A stretch of 10,796 bases of DNA from a virus. The notes under the pieces were generated by a model. That model did no database searches, was not told where the DNA came from, and was given only the letters and a program-made list of their open reading frames with translations. This document shows positions 1 through 10,796 of the stretch, one piece after another; within the stretch, counting starts at the first letter, position 1, and every line of letters starts with the position of its first letter. Made by a program: the position numbers and the translations under genes. Location of the stretch: positions 1 through 10,796 of the IMG/VR virus record IMGVR_UViG_3300028594_000124; one strand, given 5' to 3'.

Positions 1-118
1 CACCGGCGCATACGTTGCGCTTGCCGATGCCATCGCCGTGCTCAAAGAACAAGGGGGTCGCTCCACTTTCCCCAATTCTGTGAAACATTGTGAAACATTT
101 GTGAGTGTGTGAAACATT
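1..118. repeat. Left inverted terminal repeat (ITR-L), probable protein-primed replication origin
   Basis: Bases 1-118 equal the reverse complement of 10679-10796; identity stops at base 119 (t versus g). The outer 73 bp hold 46 G/C (63%). The inner 45 bp carry three TGTGAAACA copies (79-87, 89-97, 108-116). Confidence 0.9.
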
Positions 119-158
119 TTGAAAAACATTTGTGAAACTTCGGAAAATTCTGTGAAAT
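79..158 (+). promoter_or_regulatory. Left-end array of TGTGAAACA iteron-like repeats
   Basis: Perfect 9-mers start at 79, 89 and 108. Degenerate copies lie at 131-139 (TGTGAAACT) and 151-159 (TGTGAAATT). Start-to-start spacings are 10, 19, 23 and 20 bp, close to multiples of one helical turn. The array extends past the ITR boundary. Confidence 0.7.
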
Positions 159-214
159 TATTTTAAAAAACATTGTAATTATTGTTAGTTATCTCTGGAA
201 TTATAAATCTATTA

Positions 215-223
215 TGTTATAAT
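215..223 (+). promoter_or_regulatory. Early promoter, extended -10 (TGTTATAAT)
   Basis: TGnTATAAT lies at 215-223, with no good -35 element. The 16-nt core TGTTATAATAGATATA matches 3765-3780 (TGTTATAATAGAGATA) at 15 of 16 positions. It is the only strong promoter-like element upstream of the first gene. Confidence 0.55.
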
Positions 224-320
224 AGATATATAAGGGGGTTGGAAATGTTTAAATATATATCGTTAGAAATCTATCCATCTAACATATCATAAAACAATAT
301 AAGAAAAGGAATGATACAAA

Positions 321-677
321 ATGGGAATTGCAAAATTTAATAAAGGTGAAGTTTTATTTACGAATACTGAAAGATTTGACGAGTTTCTTTCATTAGAAGA
401 ATTGTTTAAACGTGATGGTAAGGGTAAAAAGTACATTGTGTTAGGGGTTTATGATTATACTAGTTCTTATGGACGTGGTGCATTTGCTAAATCAGATGGG
501 TTCAATATTTCATTACCATCACATATGGTAGATACTGTTAAAGATATTAGAAATGATAATGAAAGTGTAGAACAGATTAACAACTCAATCGTATTTTTAG
601 AAATCTACACATACACATTACCTGATAAATACCCTGATAAAACTTTCTATTCTATTAACTTCATTGTTAAAGATTAA
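321..677 (+). CDS. Hypothetical early protein; possible phi29 p5-like ssDNA-binding protein
   Basis: 118-aa ORF and first gene after the left-end promoter, followed by its own terminator. Its size, its position and the C-terminal pattern VFLEIYTYTLPDKYPDKTFYSINFIV loosely recall phi29 p5 (124 aa, ...FKVKVVQGTSSKGNVFFSLQLSL, from memory). The SD (AAAGGA) is weaker and about 10 nt from the ATG. The functional call is weak. Confidence 0.4.
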   Translation: MGIAKFNKGEVLFTNTERFDEFLSLEELFKRDGKGKKYIVLGVYDYTSSYGRGAFAKSDGFNISLPSHMVDTVKDIRNDNESVEQINNSIVFLEIYTYTLPDKYPDKTFYSINFIVKD

Positions 678-690
678 ATACTAATGGATA

Positions 691-724
691 GGTAGGACTG
701 AAAAAGTTCTACCTTTTATTATTT
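691..724 (+). terminator. Rho-independent terminator or attenuator after the first gene
   Basis: The stem GGTAGGAC (691-698) pairs with GTTCTACC (706-713) with one G-U pair and a 7-nt loop. It is followed by TTTTATTATTTT. Confidence 0.6.
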
Positions 725-740
725 TAAAGGGGGGTTAAAA

Positions 741-974
741 ATGAGAATACCAATAGACAGTATAGGTCAATTTTGTAAGATGTACCGAACATACATTCTG
801 AAATTAACACTTGATGAAATGAGTAAATTATCAGGGGTGAAAGTTCCAACTATTTCAAGTTTTGAAAATGGTAGAAGTACCAATGCTAAACACATTGAAA
901 TGTATTATAAACTTTCAACAGATAAACAAAAGATATTTTTCAAAAACAATATTCCATATGGAAAGGGTGAATAA
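741..974 (+). CDS. XRE/Cro-C1 family helix-turn-helix transcriptional regulator
   Basis: 77 aa. LTLDEMSKLSGVKVPTISSFENGRSTN is a classic HTH_XRE signature (helix, turn, recognition helix, then the E-x-G-R pattern). A strong SD (AAAGGGGGG) lies about 5 nt upstream of the ATG. Confidence 0.8.
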   Translation: MRIPIDSIGQFCKMYRTYILKLTLDEMSKLSGVKVPTISSFENGRSTNAKHIEMYYKLSTDKQKIFFKNNIPYGKGE

Positions 975-976
975 TA

Positions 977-1579
977 TTGGCAGGGGTAGAAATTAAAATA
1001 ACTACTGATAAAACGAATATAAAAAAGCTAACAGCAGAAGAACGTAAATTAAGACAGGAAGCGAGTCGATTATCTTCACTAGCGAATAAACGATTGAAAC
1101 GTATGGAACAACAAAATTTAACTGATTCACCTGCTTATAAAAAGTGGGTAGAAGATGGGAAAGCTAAATTTGGGGTACGTGGAAAATCTATGGCACAAGT
1201 ACAGGCAGAAATTGGTAGATTAAACAATTTTATCAATCAGGCAACGTCTACAGTTAGGGGTGCTAAAAACTACTTTAAAAATATAGGTGCTAGTGTCGGT
1301 ATTGTAGAATGGGAAGATATACCTGATTTACAGAATAAACTAAATAACTTTTTTGAAATTACAGGTAAGGTAAAAGAATACTTACATAATTCAAAAGAAA
1401 TTGGTGTAGCGATTGGTTATCAACAGATTTGGAATGCTGTATCAGATTATGTTCAGGAAGTAACTAATGAAGCGATAGATGTAGAATATGCGGTTATGGA
1501 AGTTGCAGCAAAGTTAGTTCCTGCTACAGGGCTTAAACATATGCACGATACATTAGATGATTTTTTAGATAGTTTTTAA
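977..1579 (+). CDS. Candidate terminal protein (TP, replication primer)
   Basis: 200-aa ORF immediately upstream of the protein-primed DNA polymerase, the same order as phi29 gene 3 then gene 2. TTG start with SD AAAGGGTGA 6 nt upstream. Basic helical N-terminus (KKLTAEERKLRQEASRLSSLANKRLKRMEQQ) and acidic C-terminus, as in known TPs. AYKKWVEDGKAKF faintly recalls phi29 TP AQFNKWKEQASSF. The call rests mainly on synteny. Confidence 0.5.
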   Translation: MAGVEIKITTDKTNIKKLTAEERKLRQEASRLSSLANKRLKRMEQQNLTDSPAYKKWVEDGKAKFGVRGKSMAQVQAEIGRLNNFINQATSTVRGAKNYFKNIGASVGIVEWEDIPDLQNKLNNFFEITGKVKEYLHNSKEIGVAIGYQQIWNAVSDYVQEVTNEAIDVEYAVMEVAAKLVPATGLKHMHDTLDDFLDSF

Positions 1580-1614
1580 ATATTCCAACGTGATACATGA
1601 AAGGGGGGTAGCTA

Positions 1615-3717
1615 ATGTTTGCTGATTTAAAATATAAAACGTATCGTAAATATAATTACCATACGAAACAATCTACCGAATATCTAAATATAGAATGTTC
1701 TTTTGATATAGAAACAACTTCTACTTATGTAGATGGTGAAAAGTTTGCTTTCATGTATCTATGGGGCTTTGGAATTGGGAATGATGGAAAACATATATAC
1801 TATGGTAGAACATGGGAAGATTTAATGATATTTCTTAATACCCTATCTAGTGAATTAGGTTTACATAAAAATAGGGTGTTAGTCTGTTACGTTCACAATT
1901 TAGCTTATGAGTTTCAATTCATGAGAAAATATTTTGATTGGGTAGGTGTCTTTTCAGTAGATGATAGAAAACCGTTAAAAGCATTATCCACTTTAGGAAT
2001 AGAATTTCGAGATAGTTATATGCTTTCAGGTTTTAGCTTATCTAATACAGCGAAAAATTTACAAAAACATGAAATTAAAAAATTAGTTGGTGATTTAGAT
2101 TATAGTAAAGTAAGACATCATGAAACAGAAATCACTGAATTAGAATTACAGTATTTAGAAAATGATGTTGTCATTGTGTTAAATTACATTAATGAACAGT
2201 TAGATATTTACGGTAAGATAACTAAAATACCTTTAACGAATACAGGTAGGGTTAGGGAATTTGTGAAAGATAACTGTTACTATTCTAAAGGTAAAAGTAA
2301 ATATAAATCTAGCAAGGGTAAAAGAAACAACTATCGTGAAATTATGGAAAACCTAACTTTAAAAGTAGATGAATATCAGAAATTAAAGATGGCTTTCATG
2401 GGTGGTTTTACACATGCCAATGCTTATTATACAGGTAAGACTTTAGAAAATGTTCATTCAGTCGATTTTACAAGTTCCTATCCTGCTGTTATATTATCCG
2501 AACAGTTTCCAATGGGTAGGGGTTTTAAACCAACTAAAGAAGAAATTTTAAAAAATGGATATGATTATTATCTAAATAATTTTAACTGTTTGATAGGCGC
2601 TGTATTTATAAATTTAGAAAACCAATTTGCACATGATAGTTACTTATCTGAAAGTAAGTGTAGAATTAGGGGTGAAAAATTAATAGATAACGGTAGGGTT
2701 TACAGGGCAGAAATGGTGTCTACCATGATAACAGAAGTTGATTTATGGATAATGAAAAAAGTGTATAGTTACGATAGTTTACACATTACAGATTTAACTG
2801 TTTATCCTAAAACCTATTTACCTAAACCAATTATTGAAAGTGTGTTAGATTTGTATCAGGATAAAACAACCCTGAAAGGTGTAGCAGGTTCAGAAGTTGA
2901 ATATATGTTATCTAAAGGAATGTTAAATTCAGTTTATGGAATGATGGTTACAGATATTGTAAAAGATGAAGTTACTTATGAAGAAGATTGGGGTATTGAA
3001 GAAGTAGACCCTGTAGAAGAAATTAAAAACTACAATGAAAAAGTAAGCAGGTTTTTGTACTATCCATGGGGTGTATGGATAACCGCTTATGCAAGGCGGA
3101 ATTTATGGTTAGGAATATTATCCCTGAAAGATGATTATATTTATTCTGATACCGACAGTATAAAATTTTTAAATTATGAAAAACATGAACCATTTTTCAG
3201 GGAATATAATGAATGGGTAGAAAAGAAACAACTTGCTACTCTTAACCATTATAGCATAGATACTAATTTACTCTATCCAAAAACTATTAAGGGTGATGTT
3301 AAAGTTGCAGGGCTATGGGATTATGAAGGAAATTATTCACGTTTTAAAACATTAGGTGCTAAACGTTATTTAGTAGAAGAAGATGATGAATTACATTTGA
3401 CAGTTGCAGGGCTATCAAAACGTAACGGTATCGAATACATGAAAGAAGTTTCAGGTGATAATTCTAAAGTGTTTAAAATGTTTACTGATGAATTAACAAT
3501 ACCTGCTAACAGAACAGGGAAAAGCACACACACTTATATAGACAGTGAACATGAATTTCCTGTTACTGATTATACAGGTAAGACAGTAACGGTAAATGCT
3601 AAATCAGGGGTTCATTTAGAAGAAGTAGAATATAGTTTAAATATCAATGATTTATATGTAAGGTTCTATGAATTAGCACAACAGGGCTACCTGCTAAAAG
3701 GGGTTATAAAACAATAA
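1615..3717 (+). CDS. Protein-primed family-B DNA polymerase (phi29 gp2-like)
   Basis: 700 aa. Motifs seen: ExoI FDIETT, ExoII HNLAYEFQF, ExoIII YLENDVVIV, YxGG-like FMGGF, motif A DFTSSYP, motif B KGMLNSVYG, motif C YSDTDS and KxY GAKRY. The SD GGGGGG lies 6 nt upstream of the ATG. Confidence 0.95.
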   Translation: MFADLKYKTYRKYNYHTKQSTEYLNIECSFDIETTSTYVDGEKFAFMYLWGFGIGNDGKHIYYGRTWEDLMIFLNTLSSELGLHKNRVLVCYVHNLAYEFQFMRKYFDWVGVFSVDDRKPLKALSTLGIEFRDSYMLSGFSLSNTAKNLQKHEIKKLVGDLDYSKVRHHETEITELELQYLENDVVIVLNYINEQLDIYGKITKIPLTNTGRVREFVKDNCYYSKGKSKYKSSKGKRNNYREIMENLTLKVDEYQKLKMAFMGGFTHANAYYTGKTLENVHSVDFTSSYPAVILSEQFPMGRGFKPTKEEILKNGYDYYLNNFNCLIGAVFINLENQFAHDSYLSESKCRIRGEKLIDNGRVYRAEMVSTMITEVDLWIMKKVYSYDSLHITDLTVYPKTYLPKPIIESVLDLYQDKTTLKGVAGSEVEYMLSKGMLNSVYGMMVTDIVKDEVTYEEDWGIEEVDPVEEIKNYNEKVSRFLYYPWGVWITAYARRNLWLGILSLKDDYIYSDTDSIKFLNYEKHEPFFREYNEWVEKKQLATLNHYSIDTNLLYPKTIKGDVKVAGLWDYEGNYSRFKTLGAKRYLVEEDDELHLTVAGLSKRNGIEYMKEVSGDNSKVFKMFTDELTIPANRTGKSTHTYIDSEHEFPVTDYTGKTVTVNAKSGVHLEEVEYSLNINDLYVRFYELAQQGYLLKGVIKQ

Positions 3718-3725
3718 AAATTCTG

Positions 3726-3762
3726 TGTGAAACAGTATTCCAATGTTTCACATGGGGTTTTT
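3726..3762 (+). terminator. Early-operon terminator whose stem is an inverted TGTGAAACA pair; probable dual-use operator
   Basis: TGTGAAACA (3726-3734) and TGTTTCACA (3744-3752) give a perfect 9-bp stem with a 9-nt loop, followed by TGGGGTTTTTTG. The hairpin starts 9 nt after the polymerase stop codon. Confidence 0.65.
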
Positions 3763-3764
3763 TG

Positions 3765-3773
3765 TGTTATAAT
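3765..3773 (+). promoter_or_regulatory. Late promoter, extended -10 (TGTTATAAT)
   Basis: TGnTATAAT lies at 3765-3773. The 16-nt core is near-identical to the promoter at 215-230. The expected -35 position (about 3745-3751) falls inside the TGTTTCACA arm. Confidence 0.55.
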
Positions 3774-3809
3774 AGAGATAGATAATTATGAATGAAAGGG
3801 GGTTTAATA

Positions 3810-4910
3810 TTGGAAATTTTCAATCGAAACAAGTTCTACACGTTAGATAGAATTTTAAAATTAAATGCTACCTATAATATGATTATTGGTGAACGTTCCA
3901 ATGGTAAAACATATGCCTGTTTGAAACATGGGATAGAAGAATATTTTAAAGATGGTTCACAATTTGCAATTGTTAGAAGATGGCAGGAAGATATTAGGGG
4001 TAAGCGTGCAAGTGAAATCTTTTCAGCTTTAATGGATAATGATGAAATATATAAAATTTCTAAAGGTGAATTTAAAGGTATCTATTATTGGGCAGGTAAA
4101 TATTACCTATGTAATTATAGCGAACAGGGTAAGCCTATCTATAATGAGCAGGACGTGATAGCCTATCCATTTGCTTTATCAGATACAGAACATAATAAAT
4201 CAATCACATATCCAAAAATAAATACAATAATCTTTGATGAGTTCCTAACAAGGCAGGTATATTTACCTGATGAATTTGTGTTATTCATGAATACAATTTC
4301 AACTATAGTAAGACAACGTACAACAGTAAAAATATTTATGTTAGGTAATACGGTAAATAGATACTCACCATATTTCACTGAAATGGGTATTACCAATGTA
4401 GATAGACAGGAACAGGGAACGATTGACGTTTATAAATATGGTAACGGTGAATTAAAAGTAGCTTTAGAATACACTAAATCTACAGGGAAATCTAAAGAGA
4501 ACAATTTCTATTTTGCTTTTGACAACCCTAAATTAGAAATGATAACTACAGGTGCATGGGAATTAGATATTTATCCACATTGCCCTGTGAAGTTTAAACC
4601 TAAAGACATCCTGTTTATTTATTTCATAGAATACAATGACGAATTATTTCAGTGTGAAATAGTAAATAAAGATAACAACCTTTTCACTTTCATTCATAGG
4701 AAAACAACAGAATTACAGAATACAGATACTGATTTAATTTACACTTTTGATTATGTACCGAAAATAAATTATAATAGAAGTATATTAAAACCGAGAAATC
4801 AATTAGAAAACCGAATACGTGAGTTCTTTATGTTTGATAAAGTTTACTATCAGGATAATGAAGTGGGTGATAGCATTAATAATTATCTAACACAATGCAG
4901 GAAAGGATAA
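3810..4910 (+). CDS. DNA encapsidation (packaging) ATPase, phi29 gp16-like
   Basis: Walker A GERSNGKTYA (gp16 GARGIGKSYA), FAIVRRW (gp16 FIYVRRY) and Walker B TIIFDEF (gp16 TIVFDEF). I prefer the TTG at 3810, with SD AAAGGGGG 7 nt upstream, over the track ATG at 3792, which has no SD and lies only about 11 nt from the predicted transcription start. Confidence 0.9.
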   Translation: MEIFNRNKFYTLDRILKLNATYNMIIGERSNGKTYACLKHGIEEYFKDGSQFAIVRRWQEDIRGKRASEIFSALMDNDEIYKISKGEFKGIYYWAGKYYLCNYSEQGKPIYNEQDVIAYPFALSDTEHNKSITYPKINTIIFDEFLTRQVYLPDEFVLFMNTISTIVRQRTTVKIFMLGNTVNRYSPYFTEMGITNVDRQEQGTIDVYKYGNGELKVALEYTKSTGKSKENNFYFAFDNPKLEMITTGAWELDIYPHCPVKFKPKDILFIYFIEYNDELFQCEIVNKDNNLFTFIHRKTTELQNTDTDLIYTFDYVPKINYNRSILKPRNQLENRIREFFMFDKVYYQDNEVGDSINNYLTQCRKG

Positions 4911-4921
4911 GGGGTGAGTGA

Positions 4922-5842
4922 GTGGATAAATTAGATAAACAGAATTTTTATGATTTTCAAAATGGAATTGCATTATATAAACCAACTGATAAACTAAGTA
5001 ACATTAATCATTTAATCAATTCATATCTAAACAAAACTTTAGCAATGTTTCAATACACCAATTTACCTGATACATTACCTGATTTAGAATTAGAAAAGAT
5101 GTTGCAGGTGCAGGGGCAGGTGTTCATAACAAAATACAATGATGATGTTGTTGCTTTGAAAATAGATTTACTTCATGATGATGTAGATGTTTACGGTAAA
5201 GCTAAAGCAGGGAACGTTTATTATCCTGATACTAAAGTATTTAAGAAAGTGAATTTGTCTGATGGGGTTTTGATACAGAATGATTATTTAGGTTTAGGAC
5301 TTTTAGAACTGTTTAAAAAATATGCTTACTTAATTAATGAAAGTGCATTATCTTTAAACATGGCGAATTTCTGGAAACGTACTGAAAAAGTATTTACCGC
5401 AAATGATGACGCTACATCAGAAAGTGTTAAAAACTATTTAGCAAAAACTGAAAGGGGTGAAATTGGGTTAGTTACTAGTAATTTACTTTATGAAAGTATT
5501 AAAGTAAATACACCACAAGCAAATGGTACTAGTTTAGGTGAATTAATAGAATACCACAATTATTTAAAGTCGCAACTGTATGCAGAAATTGGTTTATATA
5601 CCAATGAGAACAGAAAGAAAGAACGACTAATAACAAGTGAAGTAGAAACAGGTTTAAATGCTATCTATCCATTAGTAGATAATATGTTAGATAATCGTGT
5701 GCAGGGAATGGTAAAGGTCAATGAAATGTTTGATTTAGATATTCAAGTTGAATTTATGAGTTCATGGAAAGCGAACAATGAAGATAGTGAAAATATGGAT
5801 CCAAAAATTGAAGATTTAAAAATTTTAGAAGATGATGATTAG
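4922..5842 (+). CDS. Portal / head-tail connector (upper collar) protein, phi29 gp10-like
   Basis: 306 aa (gp10 is 309 aa). FQYTNLPDTLPDLELEKML resembles gp10 FEWENLPPTINPSFLEKSI. NENRKKERLITSEVE resembles gp10 NLEKKERMVTDEVS. GTG start with SD AAGGGGTGAG. Confidence 0.85.
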   Translation: MDKLDKQNFYDFQNGIALYKPTDKLSNINHLINSYLNKTLAMFQYTNLPDTLPDLELEKMLQVQGQVFITKYNDDVVALKIDLLHDDVDVYGKAKAGNVYYPDTKVFKKVNLSDGVLIQNDYLGLGLLELFKKYAYLINESALSLNMANFWKRTEKVFTANDDATSESVKNYLAKTERGEIGLVTSNLLYESIKVNTPQANGTSLGELIEYHNYLKSQLYAEIGLYTNENRKKERLITSEVETGLNAIYPLVDNMLDNRVQGMVKVNEMFDLDIQVEFMSSWKANNEDSENMDPKIEDLKILEDDD

Positions 5843-5852
5843 GGGGTTTTTG

Positions 5853-6083
5853 ATGGAAAGTTCTATTTTAGATGTTGTTAGTAATTTAGGTTTCCCTATA
5901 GCGGTGAGTGTAACATTGTTTTATCAGATGAATAAAACGAATGAAACATACGTGAAATTATTACGTGATTTTCAGGATGTAATAAGTAACAATACACATT
6001 CTATTAAGTTACTAAATGCTACCGTTCATGAATTGAAAAATGATTTAGGTTATAGAGATGTAGATACAGGTGAAAGAAAATGA
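5853..6083 (+). CDS. Small single-pass membrane protein with a YvrJ-like N-terminus; holin candidate
   Basis: 76 aa from the ATG at 5853, with SD AGGGGG 5 nt upstream. ILDVVSNLGFPIAVSVTLFY is a hydrophobic helix carrying the N-x-GFP motif I associate with the Bacillus YvrJ family. It is followed by a polar helical tail. The stop overlaps the next start (ATGA at 6080-6083). Confidence 0.6.
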   Translation: MESSILDVVSNLGFPIAVSVTLFYQMNKTNETYVKLLRDFQDVISNNTHSIKLLNATVHELKNDLGYRDVDTGERK

Positions 6084-6655
6084 AACTAAAAGATTTAGTA
6101 GTTGGTGATTATAATATTTTAGATTACATTTCGTTCTTTGATGATATATCAGACACTAAACCCTATTTTGCAGAATTAACGTTTATGTATGGTGAACGTG
6201 AATTATTAACTAAAGCAGAAGATTTATTTTTATCTAGTGATTTAGGGGGTGTTGGTTTGATGTTTGATTTGAAAAGTCCTGATTGGGAACAGTTGAAAAT
6301 TGTAGCTAAAAGATTAGTAGATGATGGAATGTTAGAAACTACCACCACCAAAACAACTGATAGAACAGATACTGTAGACAGAACAGGTACTAATTCTAGT
6401 GATGTAGCAGATGATGATTTTGTAGTAGCTTATGATGAAACAGTAGACACTAAACAAGCAGGAACAACAAGGTCAGATACTAAAGAAAATATTGAAAATG
6501 TAATCAATGAATTAGCAGGAACAGATACCACTGTTAAAACAGGATATGATAAAAACAGAATGGAATTTATAACGACACTGTTTAAAGAGTATCCTAATTA
6601 TAGGTTAGAAATTTATAAAGATATTGTAAATGGTTTATGTATTCAGGGTTATTAA
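6080..6655 (+). CDS. Acidic T/D-rich virion-module protein; candidate lower collar/adaptor or scaffold
   Basis: 191-aa ORF translationally coupled to the upstream gene, between the portal and capsid genes. A central low-complexity tract (TTTTKTTDRTDTVDRTGTNSSDVADDD...GTTRSDTK...GTDTTVKTG) is present. I recognise no motif, so the function is inferred from position only. Confidence 0.35.
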   Translation: MKLKDLVVGDYNILDYISFFDDISDTKPYFAELTFMYGERELLTKAEDLFLSSDLGGVGLMFDLKSPDWEQLKIVAKRLVDDGMLETTTTKTTDRTDTVDRTGTNSSDVADDDFVVAYDETVDTKQAGTTRSDTKENIENVINELAGTDTTVKTGYDKNRMEFITTLFKEYPNYRLEIYKDIVNGLCIQGY

Positions 6656-6683
6656 AATAAAAAATATAAAGGGGTAGTAAAAT

Positions 6684-7838
6684 ATGAAAGTAGAACAAAT
6701 TCATACAATTTTAAATACAGTTACAAATGAAGTGTTAGGTACAGAAAATTTAGTTAGTGAAGATTTATCCAATATTGTTGATGTTGGTAATGAAATTTTA
6801 AATGCTGAAAAGGTAGATAGTTATGTTAAAAAATTAGTACACCACATTGGGAAAGTAGAATTTTCTAATCGTAAATATAGGGGTAATGCTAAATCAGTAT
6901 TAATGGATAGTTGGGAATATGGTTCAATTTTACAAAAGATTGAAAGTGAATTACCTGAAGCAACTGAAAATGAGTCATGGAATTTAGTAGATGGACAATC
7001 TTATGACCCTAATGTTTTCCATCAACCAAAAGTATCTTCTAAATTTTTTGATAGTAAAGTTACGTTTGAAATTCCTGTATCATTTGCAGAAAAACAAGTA
7101 AAAGGGTCATTCTCAAATGCTAGTCAGATGAACGGTTTCCTAACAATGATTACGAACAACGTTGAAAATTCATTAACGATTAAATTAGATAGTTTAATTA
7201 TGCGAACAATTAATAACTTCATTGGGGCTACATTATTAGATGAAAATTCTAATACTAGTGTAAACTTGCTGAAAATGTATAATGACGCTATGGGTGAAAC
7301 TTTAACAGTTGCAGATGCTTTAACAGATAGTGCGTTTTTACGTTATGCCAACTTCATTATCAATACATACACTGATAGAATGTCACGTATTTCTACACTG
7401 TTTAATAAAGGTGGTAAAGAACGTTTTACGAATAAAGAAAATGCTAATCTAATTCTATTGACTGATTTTGTAAATAGTTCAGATGTGTTCTTACAATCAG
7501 ATGTACGACACAATGAATTAACAGGTGTAGCTAAATTTGATACGGTTCCTTATTGGCAAGGTTCAGGTACAGGGTATTCATTAGATGAAATTTCATCTAT
7601 CAATGTATCTGTAAATGACGGTACAGCGACTTCTAAAACAGTTGAACAATCAGGAATTATCGGAGTACTGTTTGATAGACAAGCACTAGGGGTTACGAAT
7701 TTAGATAAACGTGTTACAACGAATTACAATCCTAAAGCAGAATTTTATACTAACTTCTATAAAGCAGATGGCGGATACTTTAACGACTTTAACCAAAACT
7801 TTGTTGTATTCTACATTGAAGATGATAGTGCTGCTTAA
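6684..7838 (+). CDS. Major capsid protein (HK97-fold, Picovirinae type)
   Basis: 384 aa. It has a strong SD (AAAGGGGTAG) and is followed by a strong terminator, as expected for the most abundant virion protein. GVLFDRQALGV resembles phi29 gp8 AVLVDKDWFMV. There is no Ig-like C-terminal extension. Confidence 0.75.
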   Translation: MKVEQIHTILNTVTNEVLGTENLVSEDLSNIVDVGNEILNAEKVDSYVKKLVHHIGKVEFSNRKYRGNAKSVLMDSWEYGSILQKIESELPEATENESWNLVDGQSYDPNVFHQPKVSSKFFDSKVTFEIPVSFAEKQVKGSFSNASQMNGFLTMITNNVENSLTIKLDSLIMRTINNFIGATLLDENSNTSVNLLKMYNDAMGETLTVADALTDSAFLRYANFIINTYTDRMSRISTLFNKGGKERFTNKENANLILLTDFVNSSDVFLQSDVRHNELTGVAKFDTVPYWQGSGTGYSLDEISSINVSVNDGTATSKTVEQSGIIGVLFDRQALGVTNLDKRVTTNYNPKAEFYTNFYKADGGYFNDFNQNFVVFYIEDDSAA

Positions 7839-7854
7839 TTAAATAACTGAATAG

Positions 7855-7882
7855 GGTGGAATTGACGTTCCACCTTATTTTT
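7855..7882 (+). terminator. Rho-independent terminator or attenuator after the capsid gene
   Basis: The stem GGTGGAA (7855-7861) pairs with TTCCACC (7868-7874) around a 6-nt loop. It is followed by TTATTTTT. Confidence 0.7.
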
Positions 7883-7899
7883 ATATAAGGGGTGAATAC

Positions 7900-8283
7900 A
7901 TGAGTGACAATTTAAAAATATATACGAATAAATCAGACCAAAATATTATCAATAAAGATAAGGAAATAGTATCTACTTTAGAATGTACCTTTAAAGATAA
8001 TATTGATATACTAAATCCTATTCTACTAATTAAAAATTATACAGGTGGAAACTACTGTTACATTTTAGATTTTGAACGGTACTATTTTATAGATGATGTT
8101 AGTTTATTAAAGGGTGGGGTGTATCAGTTGCATTGTTCTGTAGATGTTTTACAGTCATATGCTGATGAGTTAGAAAACAGTGAATATTATTCAAGTGATG
8201 GGGTTTTACATACAGTAGAAAATGAAATCGAATTTACTGAAATATATAATCCTGAAAAATTTATTTTGATTATGGGGGTGTAA
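7900..8283 (+). CDS. Tail knob / distal tail tube protein, N-terminal segment (phi29 gp9 N-terminus-like)
   Basis: 127 aa. NYCYILDFERYYFIDDVSLLKGGVYQLHCSVDVLQSY resembles the phi29 gp9 N-terminal [44 protein letters not shown] is present. The ORF ends at TAA, in frame with the next ORF. Confidence 0.6.
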   Translation: MSDNLKIYTNKSDQNIINKDKEIVSTLECTFKDNIDILNPILLIKNYTGGNYCYILDFERYYFIDDVSLLKGGVYQLHCSVDVLQSYADELENSEYYSSDGVLHTVENEIEFTEIYNPEKFILIMGV

Positions 8284-8286
8284 AAA

Positions 8287-9942
8287 ATGGCAAGTGAATT
8301 ATTACGTATGGTTGAACATGTTGAGTTATGGGGCGACCCTGAAATTGTTAAATTGACAGGTTATTTAACTGAAAGTAAAAAGAATTTATTACTAACTGTT
8401 GAATTAAAAAACCACTATTTCATAGACCCTATAAAATTTACAATGAAACGTGATACAAGGGGTGATTTTAACTATAATCACATTAGTTTTAGTGATTCTA
8501 CACAAGGTGTAATATCTGAAATGATTGACGGTGTAGAAAGAAATACAGGAATTATATCTCTTAATGTTGGGTTAGATACCACCACTACAAAAGTTGAAGT
8601 TATTGTCAGTCCTGATAACATTGTTCAATATGAACCACAAATTGATGGACAATCTTTAATGATTGAAAATTATAATGTTGTAAATGCTTATGTTGATACT
8701 AGTTATATACCGTTTAATTCTAGTGGGGTGATAGTTAGTAATTTCAGTTCTGATGGTGATAACGTTCAAGAAGTTGTGATTGAAGATACTTTACGTGTTA
8801 CAGCAAATGATGGGTATAAATTTGATTTAGATAATTTAGAAGATTATTATTTTGATGTTCAATTTCAACCGTATAATTATAATTTACGTTTGAGTTATGA
8901 TAGTACTGTACCATTCATACGTGTAAATCTTTCAGAATTTAGACCTGCTACAGGTATATCAACTTTTAATTGGATAGAAAAAAGCTCTAGTTATCCACTA
9001 TATCAAAGCGTACCTACTGATGGTACTATGTTCTATACTTATTCTGTAGGTGATACTAAACATTTGTTATTGTTATATGGTGGGTTACGTGAAAATGATT
9101 TACTATTTTTCACTTTCACTAAATCAAAATCAGGTTATGATGATATAGCATTTACTATGAACGGTGAAGAGTGGGTTAGGACAGATTTATTTTCTGCTAG
9201 TCTTTACGATTCTATAACAGATGAACGTCTTGAATTGAGTTTTTTAAATAATCTAAATTTTGTTGCCGTACCATCTACAACTACACCTATAGAAGATACT
9301 TCTAAATATTTATTTAATACTTATTACATTGATAATTCTGATTTGTCTATGTTACGTGAAAATAGTGGGTTAGTGAGTGAAGTGATTATAAATACCTATT
9401 CCTATCCTATAAACTTTTCAGATGATGATTTGGTAGATGTAGATTTTTCAGTAGCGAATATTACACAAAATATTCCTGCTAAACGATTTTTATTTAATAA
9501 TACAGAAGTAGAAATTTTTAAATTTACTATTCCTGATGTTCCTGATGTTTCAGATATACGTATCAGAATACCGTTTAATAATGATGTTACACTACACTAT
9601 GAAGATGTTAGGGGTAAAACAATAACAGGTAGATTTAGTTATGAAGTTTTAACGAATAGTACAACGTTATTTATTAATGATGGGGTTACAGATATTTACA
9701 AAAACATGGTAGGTGTTGGTGTTGTTGTACCATACAGGGCTACAGGTAGATATGATGGGGGTAACGACCCTACAACACGTTTAGCAGTTGATGAACCTAA
9801 GTTATTCATTAAAGGGGTTGGTAAAACGATAAAAGGAAATTACATTCAGGGTACGATTGGTAAAGTAGTTGAAAATATGTTAAATTCAGAACGTGATAAA
9901 TTAAATACATTACTAGAGAATGGGGTGTTTTTCAATGATTGA
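8287..9942 (+). CDS. Tail knob C-terminal segment, probably also the receptor-binding protein
   Basis: 551 aa. The C-terminal NSERDKLNTLLENGVFF resembles the phi29 gp9 C-terminal NNDLQEIRTIFDNGITLW. EIFKFTIPDV...IRIRIPFNNDVTLHYEDVRGKTITGRFSYEV recalls gp9 [23 protein letters not shown]...KIQVRGSLG. It has its own SD (GGGGGTG) 6 nt upstream of the ATG. No other tail or fibre gene is present in the genome. Confidence 0.55.
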   Translation: MASELLRMVEHVELWGDPEIVKLTGYLTESKKNLLLTVELKNHYFIDPIKFTMKRDTRGDFNYNHISFSDSTQGVISEMIDGVERNTGIISLNVGLDTTTTKVEVIVSPDNIVQYEPQIDGQSLMIENYNVVNAYVDTSYIPFNSSGVIVSNFSSDGDNVQEVVIEDTLRVTANDGYKFDLDNLEDYYFDVQFQPYNYNLRLSYDSTVPFIRVNLSEFRPATGISTFNWIEKSSSYPLYQSVPTDGTMFYTYSVGDTKHLLLLYGGLRENDLLFFTFTKSKSGYDDIAFTMNGEEWVRTDLFSASLYDSITDERLELSFLNNLNFVAVPSTTTPIEDTSKYLFNTYYIDNSDLSMLRENSGLVSEVIINTYSYPINFSDDDLVDVDFSVANITQNIPAKRFLFNNTEVEIFKFTIPDVPDVSDIRIRIPFNNDVTLHYEDVRGKTITGRFSYEVLTNSTTLFINDGVTDIYKNMVGVGVVVPYRATGRYDGGNDPTTRLAVDEPKLFIKGVGKTIKGNYIQGTIGKVVENMLNSERDKLNTLLENGVFFND

Positions 9943-10618
9943 TTTATTTATAGCAGGTCATGGTAAAAATTTAAAAACAGGTGGTTTTGATACAGGTGCA
10001 ACAGGTTATATTTCAAAAGGTGAGCATAGATATATGACAGAAGATTTATTCCCTGCCATGAAAAAATATATACCTGATGGTGTTAAACCTATTTTCCATA
10101 CTGAATATAATGTTTATAGTCAGGGAAATATTGTTTCACTTGCTAAGAAGTATGGAAAAGATGTAAGGGTAACAGAATTTCATTTTGACGCAGGCGGTGT
10201 AAACTATTCAAAAGCAGGTGGACACGTTATTATTCAATCAGGGTTAAAACCTGATGAATTAGATTTACGATTAAGAGATGCTATCAAAAATACAACAGGG
10301 TTACACCCTATTCATTCTGATGGTATCAGTAGACGTAACAACTTACTTAATCCACGTTTAGCTATGCAAGGTGGTATTAATTATAGGTTACTAGAATTAG
10401 GAATGAGTACACATAAAGAGAATGCTAACTACATGATTAACAATGTTGATACCATTGCTAAAGAGTTAGTAAAAGCATTTTATTCTACTACTAAATCTAC
10501 ACCATCAACAGATAAATTATACAGGGTACAAGTTGGTGCATTTAAAAAGTTAGATAATGCAAAACAATTACAAAATGAATTGCGTGCTAAAGGTTATGAT
10601 GATTGTTTTATAATCTAA
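9935..10618 (+). CDS. Endolysin: N-acetylmuramoyl-L-alanine amidase (Amidase_3, CwlC-like) with a short C-terminal SPOR-like repeat
   Basis: IAGHGKN..GGFDTGATGY..GEH, FHFDAG and LELGMSTHKENANYM fit the Amidase_3 zinc and catalytic pattern. After a T/S/P linker, the C-terminal YRVQVGAFKKLDNAKQLQNELRAKGYDDCFII fits a SPOR repeat. I prefer the ATG at 9935 (SD GGGGTG 7 nt upstream, an ATGATTGA overlap with the upstream stop) over 9920. Confidence 0.88.
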   Translation: MIDLFIAGHGKNLKTGGFDTGATGYISKGEHRYMTEDLFPAMKKYIPDGVKPIFHTEYNVYSQGNIVSLAKKYGKDVRVTEFHFDAGGVNYSKAGGHVIIQSGLKPDELDLRLRDAIKNTTGLHPIHSDGISRRNNLLNPRLAMQGGINYRLLELGMSTHKENANYMINNVDTIAKELVKAFYSTTKSTPSTDKLYRVQVGAFKKLDNAKQLQNELRAKGYDDCFII

Positions 10619-10629
10619 TAGATATTTGA

Positions 10630-10660
10630 ACGTGGTATAAATATTTATATCACGTTTTTT
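10630..10660 (+). terminator. Rho-independent terminator of the late operon
   Basis: The stem ACGTGGTATA (10630-10639) pairs with TATATCACGT (10646-10655) with one G-U pair and a 6-nt loop. It is followed by TTTTTT (10655-10660) and starts 12 nt after the endolysin stop. Confidence 0.75.
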
Positions 10661-10718
10661 GTTTCACAGACTGCACACAATGTTTCACACACTCACAAAT
10701 GTTTCACAATGTTTCACA
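10660..10718 (-). promoter_or_regulatory. Right-end array of TGTGAAACA iteron-like repeats (read as TGTTTCACA on the plus strand)
   Basis: Perfect copies lie at 10660-10668 (outside the ITR), 10681-10689, 10700-10708 and 10710-10718, with spacings of 21, 19 and 10 bp. The copy outside the ITR mirrors the left-end degenerate copy at 131-139 to within 2 bp. Confidence 0.7.
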
Positions 10719-10796
10719 GAATTGGGGAAAGTGGAGCGACCCCCTTGTTCTTTGAGCACGGCGATGGCATCGGCAAGCGCAACGTATGCGCCGGTG
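10679..10796. repeat. Right inverted terminal repeat (ITR-R), probable protein-primed replication origin
   Basis: Exact reverse complement of 1-118. Carries TGTTTCACA at 10681-10689, 10700-10708 and 10710-10718. Confidence 0.9.

Follow-up and report, generated by a model that had tools for sequence, protein, structure and literature searches.

The window analysed here is the full length (10,796 nt; positions 1 to 10,796) of IMG/VR virus record IMGVR_UViG_3300028594_000124, the complete linear genome of a phi29-like phage of ~10.7 kb with inverted terminal repeats (ITRs) of 121 bp. Every gene lies on the + strand and is read from left to right. The element in question occupies positions 3718–3780, between the gene for a type-B, protein-primed DNA polymerase (1615–3717 in the list of open reading frames (ORFs), with its stop codon TAA at 3715–3717; Pfam PF03175, PHROG 1907) and the gene for a gp16-type packaging ATPase (Pfam PF05894). 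It was best explained, with a probability of about 0.7, as a compact terminator-promoter junction that would separate the replication genes from those for packaging, structure and lysis. Its hairpin has as arms what is left of two parS copies in tandem, namely their inner halves; parS is the bacterial centromere to which ParB/Spo0J binds.

Hairpin and promoter between the polymerase and ATPase genes

Downstream of the polymerase stop codon, TGTGAAACA (3726–3734) and TGTTTCACA (3744–3752) are inverted repeats that match perfectly over 9 bp around a loop of 9 nt (3735–3743). On the 3' side of the right arm came GGGG (3754–3757), a run of six T residues (T6, 3758–3763) and then TGTGTTATAAT. The inverted repeat, its loop, the T-run and an extended -10 element had been described in an earlier note on this DNA, and all were confirmed in the sequence. 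As + strand RNA, the region was predicted to fold into a hairpin of 13 pairs (3722–3734 with 3744–3756; -14.9 kcal/mol, z = -4.2), or of 17 pairs when those between the upstream A-run and the U-run were counted (3718–3760; -17.7 kcal/mol, z = -5.2), and none of 200 shuffled sequences folded equally well. Beyond the 9-bp arms, the stem pairs only as RNA of the + strand. A stable stem-loop directly followed by U6 on the transcribed strand is the anatomy of an intrinsic (Rho-independent) terminator, and the hairpin with its U-tract fits such an element, here called putative terminator t2. Stem energy, z-scores and the T6 tract were thus all in line with the terminator that the earlier note had proposed. 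A search of the whole window against Rfam gave two sub-threshold, microRNA-like matches on the hairpin, and no prohead RNA (pRNA), despite the presence of a gp16-type ATPase.

The last T of the T6 tract doubles as the first base of an extended -10 element of the TRTG type (TGTG-T-TATAAT; 3763–3773, + strand), designated promoter P2, which is without a -35 hexamer. Within it, TGTTATAAT occupies 3765–3773 and the TATAAT hexamer 3768–3773; the predicted start site is near 3780. A 17-bp spacer would place the -35 hexamer at 3745–3750, i.e., within the right arm, which is where the earlier note had put it. The TG lies one base 5' of a consensus -10, and the element is intergenic and upstream of a gene with a ribosome-binding site, in keeping with a sigma-A extended -10 promoter. 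It also duplicates the left-end promoter P1 (215–226, + strand; TATG-T-TATAAT-AGA), which aligns with the promoters of relatives. They have the 12-mer TGTTATAATAGA in common, so that neither the extended -10 nor the discriminator differs between them, and each is of the TRTG type known from Gram-positive extended -10 elements. On the + strand of the window, TGnTATAAT occurs only at 215 and 3765, both intergenic. Likewise, in those clade genomes for which both regions were on the contig and the left-end -10 was intact, + strand TGnTATAAT was found only at the P1 and P2 positions. Conservation of the P2 extended -10 in 10 related genomes, together with its likeness to P1, upheld its earlier description as a promoter-like element.

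Behind P2, the ATPase gene has its ribosome-binding site, AAAGGGGG, at 3795–3802 (+ strand). The listed start, ATG at 3792, is probably an over-extension, and TTG at 3810 the probable true start, because relatives begin at an aligned ATG, GTG or TTG-GAA and the nearest cluster members are 366 aa long. We infer that transcription both terminates and initiates at the junction in vivo. Transcripts from P1 would read through an attenuator that follows the gene whose product resembles single-stranded-DNA-binding proteins (SSB-like), fold the 13–17-bp hairpin and stop, partly to largely, in U6 (terminator at 3722–3763). Host sigma-A RNA polymerase would then restart transcription of the late module at the -35-independent extended -10, TGTGTTATAAT (3763–3773).

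Tandem parS sites in related genomes and their remnants in the window

Protein-guided scans gave ~190 loci (identified by L numbers) from a family of ~10–13-kb phi29-like contigs from digesters, guts and fermentations; the window's own clade was found by searching with the SSB-like and ATPase proteins and then fetching the contigs. Among most relatives the polymerase stop and ATPase start abut, and the relatives at 70% identity (L001–L003) are without an intergenic region. A subset of the family carries at the same junction a 16-bp palindrome, TGTTYCAC-GTGRAACA, whose half-site is the repeat that had been called an iteron in the window. When TTTCACGTGAAA was looked up literally in full texts, every paper found dealt with ParB/parS. 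The chromosomal parS consensus is TGTTNCACGTGAAACA, in B. subtilis as well as in numerous other phyla (PMC7022226, Table 1), and phi29 is reported to have five parS sites, through which host Spo0J segregates the genome of the phage into the prespore (PMC2731898). When the phi29 sequence EU771092 was scanned, TGTTTCACGTGGAACA was located at 10445, 15903, 17243 and 18760, and a site with three mismatches at 11796. Judged by its sequence, the 'iteron' is the half-site of parS, and the earlier reading is corrected in that the motif is a bacterial centromere rather than a phage-private repeat.

Across the fetched family loci, 74 strict parS sites were counted in 1.57 Mb, against 0.003 expected, and 26 of the 94 fetched contigs that were 9 kb or longer had at least one. 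In addition to the polymerase/ATPase junction, the palindrome was found in the ITRs, between genes (XRE/terminal-protein-like, SSB-like/XRE and capsid/next gene) and inside the connector gene. Copies in coding sequence lay near the 3' end of the connector gene, where they read V-S-R-E-T, or in an N-terminal extension of the ATPase (L038 at 5907, L068 at 6056, L072 at 5183, L079 at 2590, L082 at 5076; L007 at 3680, L058 at 1009). Since parS is embedded in coding sequence, the DNA motif is maintained even inside genes. Three features show that selection acts on the palindrome as duplex DNA and not as RNA: hybrid sites exist (TGTTCCACGTGAAACA), abutting halves leave no room for a loop, and some copies stand upstream of the early promoter. 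The idea that the palindrome works in the family as RNA only was rejected: hybrid sites like TGTTCCACGTGAAACA would produce C.A mismatches, abutting halves give no stable hairpin, and some copies occupy untranscribed positions in the ITRs.

In five sister genomes (L094, L097, L100, L102 and L103; polymerase 83–87% identical), two parS sites stood in tandem at the junction, in the order TAA, O1, 9–11 nt, O2, 5–8 nt, extended -10. O2 was perfect in all five and spanned about -35 to -20 of P2, while O1, at about -60 to -45, often had a degenerate right half. The 16-mer of phi29, TGTTTCACGTGGAACA, is identical to O2 of L097, L100, L102 and L103. A sixth sister, L192, had O2 alone with the promoter, i.e., a single parS. 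The P2 element was kept 5–8 nt downstream of O2 in all six and in L023. In each of the six, a further perfect palindrome stood behind the terminal-protein-like gene, ahead of the polymerase ribosome-binding site, and sister ITRs carried 3–9 oriented direct half-sites (TTCTGTGAAACATTT), with one full palindrome there as well in L094/L095. With O2 lying across the -35 region and spacer, ParB bound to it in the sister phages would be expected to hinder RNA polymerase. The most extreme end arrays were those of L192 (43–173 and right end), with nine direct half-sites per ITR, and L144 (27–125 and right end), with four parS-like sites per ITR; L080 had three tandem parS-like sites at one end (10861–10920), where the SSB-like gene is on the opposite strand.

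The window aligned position for position with the sister layout, the left arm of the hairpin corresponding to the right half of O1, the loop to the spacer and the right arm to the left half of O2. By this alignment with the tandem parS sites of the five sisters, the O1 remnant was assigned to 3719–3734 (+ strand); its outer half (3719–3726, AATTCTGT) has decayed, while its inner half-site, GTGAAACA (3727–3734), is intact and forms the 5' arm. The O2 remnant was assigned to 3744–3759 (+ strand), about -36 to -21 of P2; here the inner half-site, TGTTTCAC (3744–3751), is intact as the 3' arm and the outer half (3752–3759, ATGGGGTT) has been replaced. The loop (3735–3743) is the former 9–11-nt spacer between the parS sites and varies among the four genomes that share this form, namely the window, L096, L194 (with L195 and L196) and L197. 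The P2 element is invariant in the four, and the U-tract is T6 in L194 and L197 and T5 in L096. In a neighbour-joining tree based on the polymerase, from which L194 and L197 were absent, the window and L096 were nested within the palindrome-bearing clade; therefore, the window's form of the junction is derived. An exact search of IMG/VR for the derived right arm (AATGTTTCACATGGGG) returned five unrelated chance matches.

Loss of complete parS was general in these four genomes, all of which had no site within two mismatches, compared with 2–5 sites in the sisters. In the window, no full 16-bp parS matching TGTTNCACGTGAAACA was found within two mismatches, and the sole match with three mismatches was in a coding region. 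The site at the terminal-protein/polymerase junction, perfect in the six sisters, has decayed in all four to TATTCCAACGTGR.. with a central 1-bp insertion; the window's copy, TATTCCAACGTGATACA, is at 1581–1597 (+ strand). Measured against the state in L103, substitutions at the junction affected 11 of the 16 outer-half positions and 1 of the 16 inner-half positions (Fisher p = 6e-4). Despite this, the outer halves pair at 8 of 8 positions in + strand RNA (four Watson-Crick and four G.U pairs), against 4 of 8 on the other strand; the chance of 8/8 is 8e-4. When the 16-pair helix was scored in the four derived genomes, pairing was seen in 92% of cells, as opposed to 34–64% with the partner slid, and the sole variation in the helix consisted of three one-sided U/C changes opposite G, which preserve pairing. 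Replacement of the outer halves also created the G-run and the T5–6 tract. The outer halves were probably overwritten in such a way that RNA pairing was kept while a G-run and U-tract were added, which would have turned a pair of protein-binding sites into, or reduced it to, a better RNA terminator. The window's lineage, with every complete parS decayed, would in this manner have given up control by ParB and strengthened the terminator.

These comparisons bear on the simplest alternative, that the hairpin is a chance structure or neutral fossil without terminator activity and that the genes share a transcript, as they do in most of the wider family. The polymerase stop and ATPase start indeed abut or overlap in most relatives without any intergenic element, and 67 of 152 distinct junctions measure more than 90 nt from the polymerase stop to Walker A (typically 56–70 nt), with the palindrome in 19. 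However, a fossil would not account for outer-stem pairing that was kept through 11 substitutions, for the gain of a G-run and T6, or for a structure conserved in four genomes with a z-score of -5, and there would be no point in a dedicated promoter directly downstream unless transcription from upstream is cut back. We consider this alternative highly improbable.

Several observations nevertheless weigh against a terminator followed by a restart promoter. The 9-nt loop exceeds the usual 3–8 nt and A-U and G.U pairs abound in the stem, for which reason t2 may terminate transcription only partially. The hairpin was not listed by a built-in terminator scan, because the loop limit of the scan is 8 nt. 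No double compensatory changes were found in the four derived genomes. P2 is as good as P1 by sequence, and therefore the layout alone gives no temporal control of early and late expression. Finally, the inner arms were invariant at 16 of 16 positions in the four genomes while the loop varied, and in each genome the arms were the same as the ITR repeats; this hints at a sequence-specific constraint beyond RNA pairing, so there may be residual protein binding.

The half-site does recur at the ends of the window, the arms being the same motif as the ITR repeats, which agrees with the 'iteron motif' of the earlier note. Nine exact copies of the 9-mer were found, two at the junction, three in the left ITR and four at the right end. 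When up to one mismatch was allowed, 17 matches were counted, compared with 5.6 expected; since none of 200 shuffles reached 17, the recurrence is not due to chance. The left-end array of direct parS half-sites (79–159, + strand) comprised exact copies of TGTGAAACA at 79, 89 and 108, and variants at 131 (TGTGAAACT) and 151 (TGTGAAATT); the first three half-sites are inside the ITR. The right-end array of four exact half-sites (10660–10718, - strand) came immediately after the last terminator (10628–10657). Homologous arrays of 6–9 half-sites were present in L103 and L192. Counted as the 8-mer GTGRAACA, which includes the half-site heptamer (GTTTCAC/GTGAAAC), the motif had 10 copies in the window: seven at the genome ends, two at the junction and one in a coding region.

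It is possible, but unlikely, that these half-sites are still functional, such that host ParB or another factor would bind the ITR arrays and the arms at P2, and the junction would be a protein-controlled promoter combined with a terminator. Arms that are invariant in four genomes while loop and flanks vary give a mild hint of continued use, arms and ITR repeats have an extended identity in common (GTGAAACATT), and ITRs throughout the clade have 3–9 oriented half-sites. Some ParBs bind isolated GTTTCAC/GTTCCAC half-sites in vivo, but for B. subtilis Spo0J and several others no such binding is reported (PMC7022226, section 4). Moreover, arm invariance may reflect the constraint of pairing and a short divergence time, and the loss of all complete sites in the lineage looks more like ParB binding that was abandoned.

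Candidate binding proteins

The earlier note had taken the motif for a phage-specific iteron bound by the XRE-type helix-turn-helix (HTH) protein of the window (741–974, + strand; 77 aa). In that scheme the 27-bp palindrome is an XRE operator at about -41.5, from which the late promoter would be activated or repressed with class-II geometry, and it also serves to terminate early transcription; the two functions together would make a compact switch from early to late expression. The XRE protein is the only recognisable phage-encoded, sequence-specific binder of duplex DNA, the centre of the dyad (3739) is about -41 from a start predicted at 3780, and the arms equal the ITR repeats. The idea is, however, very unlikely to be right, given that the motif is a universal parS half-site and that its occurrence was independent of XRE. 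Across the 94 contigs of at least 9 kb, presence of parS and presence of an XRE gene were unrelated (odds ratio = 1.4, p = 0.51); 11 parS-bearing genomes were without a detectable XRE homolog, and 36 XRE-bearing genomes were without parS. The window's XRE protein is 79–83% identical to those of sisters with full palindromes, with an almost unchanged HTH segment, and no correlation pattern was seen between the palindrome and variants of the recognition helix or presence of the gene.

The geometry proposed for XRE also failed. Sites in the sisters are abutting head-to-head palindromes centred at about -27.5 and at -52 to -54, not at -41.5, and a dyad at -41 exists only in the decayed form; as read from the alignment, it is a by-product of which halves survived. 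In the window the half-sites are everted, with 18 bp from one centre to the other, a distance that a dimer fitted to the 16-bp palindrome could not span. The notion of a palindromic DNA operator survived in part: sister genomes do have genuine DNA palindromes over the -35 region and spacer of P2, but the window has no complete palindromic site.

Since parS is independent of XRE, occurs in genomes without it, and meets an almost unchanged HTH in genomes with either state of the site, host ParB is the probable binder of the complete sites in relatives. The product of the window's first gene, a 118-aa protein, was rejected as a binder of half-sites, being SSB-like by its model and not a duplex-DNA binder. 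Other identities of the motif were also tried and discarded. No Spo0A boxes (TGTCGAA) were found in the window; a CRP/FNR/Rex-type site (TGTGA-N6-TCACA) was rejected by inspection, the spacing here being N17, as was the -35 of an extracytoplasmic function (ECF) sigma factor (TGAAAC), there being no downstream CGT element; and for a LexA Cheo box the orientation of the half-sites is wrong.

A broader role for ParB was also considered. Because tandem parS sites lie over the -35 region and spacer of the only internal promoter, and further sites at the polymerase gene and in the ITRs, host ParB might act as a late-gene regulator in this family of small phages. Expression of packaging, structural and lysis genes, and perhaps spore segregation, would then depend on ParB occupancy; replication might titrate ParB and so provide a host-factor timer, and the window's lineage would be a natural escape mutant that has taken apart all its full parS sites, put an RNA terminator in place of the control point and kept the half-site arrays at its ends. 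We regard this as quite unlikely. The nearest relatives were binned with metagenome-assembled genomes (MAGs) of Tissierella and Clostridiaceae, although binning of phage contigs is unreliable; these bins give a hint of spore-forming hosts, which would fit a role in spore entrapment like that in phi29.

Known systems and genome context

Phi29 provides the closest precedent for parS on a phage. Its sites, through which Spo0J/ParB entraps the phage genome in spores, have the same 16-bp sequence as O2 of four sisters (L097, L100, L102 and L103), and the phages on both sides are protein-primed lytic podophages with several copies. The phi29 (L191) copy at 17243–17258 is intergenic, exactly between the stop of gene 16 (ATPase) and the bidirectional terminator TD1, and so parallels the adjacency of parS and terminator in the window's family. 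However, most phi29 copies are inside genes and none has been described over a promoter, whereas those of the window's family are in ITRs, at gene junctions and in tandem over the promoter of the late module. The window itself keeps half-sites only. Repression in phi29 occurs through Spo0A boxes, which the window is without. The earlier note had also contrasted the junction with the phi29 switch at promoters A2c/A2b/A3, which uses p4. That contrast holds for p4: no ORF of the window matched the p4 or p6 families, all genes are on one strand, and the sites are host-type parS rather than p4 boxes. It does not extend to the motif, which phi29 itself carries, with one copy abutting TD1. The p4/p6 switch of phi29 and the junction are alike in having a late promoter without a -35 and regulator-bound sites upstream of or over the promoter; in phi29, p6 links genome ends with transcription.

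Genomes of the phi29 type have Rho-independent terminators that act as attenuators, at TD1 and inside gene 4 (PMC11476376). Like t2, these are stem-loops with a U-run at a module boundary, which set relative expression in a polycistronic layout; t2 differs in that its stem derives from two protein-binding palindromes, and in being fused to a restart promoter by one shared base. A formal resemblance to plasmid iteron/Rep systems lies in the direct half-site repeats at replication origins (here, the ITRs) and the inverted copies at an internal promoter. Yet the window has no Rep gene, the gene behind the inverted copies is a packaging ATPase, and the motif belongs to a host partition system. Chromosomal ParB, in P. 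aeruginosa and others, binds the same heptamers, GTTTCAC/GTTCCAC, without a full palindrome (PMC7022226), but this is a property known from chromosomes that depends on the species, and B. subtilis did not show it.

Terminators, extended -10 promoters and phage-borne parS are each already known. By sequence comparison, what is new is the placement of tandem parS across a promoter, the occurrence of parS and half-parS arrays in the ITRs of a large uncultivated family, and the apparent conversion of a parS pair into a terminator. Host parS, which phi29 was known to carry, is widespread among the phages of an uncultivated family with genomes of ~10–12 kb, where some placements are not described for phi29: within ITRs, at gene junctions directly upstream of a ribosome-binding site, and as tandem sites over a promoter. 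Between the window and its sisters, nature offers a clean comparison of full parS with half-sites plus terminator, which could serve tests of ParB in transcription or spore entrapment. The junction is also a worked example of how a pair of protein-binding palindromes might become an RNA terminator. For the purpose of annotation it is ordinary: a terminator, then a promoter.

The remaining genes of the window were assigned as follows, all on the + strand. Gene 1 (321–677; 118 aa) had no Pfam or PHROG match, but its product is SSB-like by predicted structure: the AlphaFold model (pLDDT = 86) matched the SSB of the phi29-like Staphylococcus phage JBug18 (E = 2e-9, TM = 0.74) and, weakly, SSB P12 of PRD1. 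The XRE gene follows, and then a gene for a terminal-protein-like product of 200 aa, which was assigned by its position. These three, together with the polymerase gene, are the replication genes to the left of the junction. Downstream of the ATPase come, in order, a phi29-type connector, a holin-like protein, a phi29-type major capsid protein, tail proteins and an amidase. A megablast search of the window against GenBank phages gave no match.

Three other terminators (hairpin plus T-run, + strand) were identified, at 690–714 after the SSB-like gene, at 7849–7880 after the capsid gene and at 10628–10657 after the last gene. The first two have the ribosome-binding site of the next gene directly 3', without a promoter, which shows attenuation by terminators to be in use in this genome. 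The stems of these two covary within the clade (e.g., GGGTGGAA/TTCCACCT versus GAGTGGG/CCACTC), and the one after the SSB-like gene fits high expression of that gene. An antisense TGnTATAAT lies within the polymerase gene (3248–3256, - strand); it was also present in L096, L097 and L102, and may be due to coding constraint.

At both termini of the window (1–41 and 10756–10796) there is a GC-rich sequence of ~41 nt (CACCGGCGCATACGTTGCGC...) that is absent from relatives, whose genomes begin GGGATTAAAG... and align to the window from position 42 onward. The GC-rich terminal 78 nt matched no plasmid, and a 19-nt core (positions 8–26) matched none of the fetched loci; the terminal 41 nt are either a real extension of the ITR or an adapter or assembly artefact. 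Between P1 and the SSB-like gene, no significant RNA structure was found in the region 224–320. An ORF of 15 codons behind P1 (245–292) is a remnant of a gene of 54–62 aa, which is present in this position in L100, L102, L103, L192 and L197, and has been lost in L194 also.

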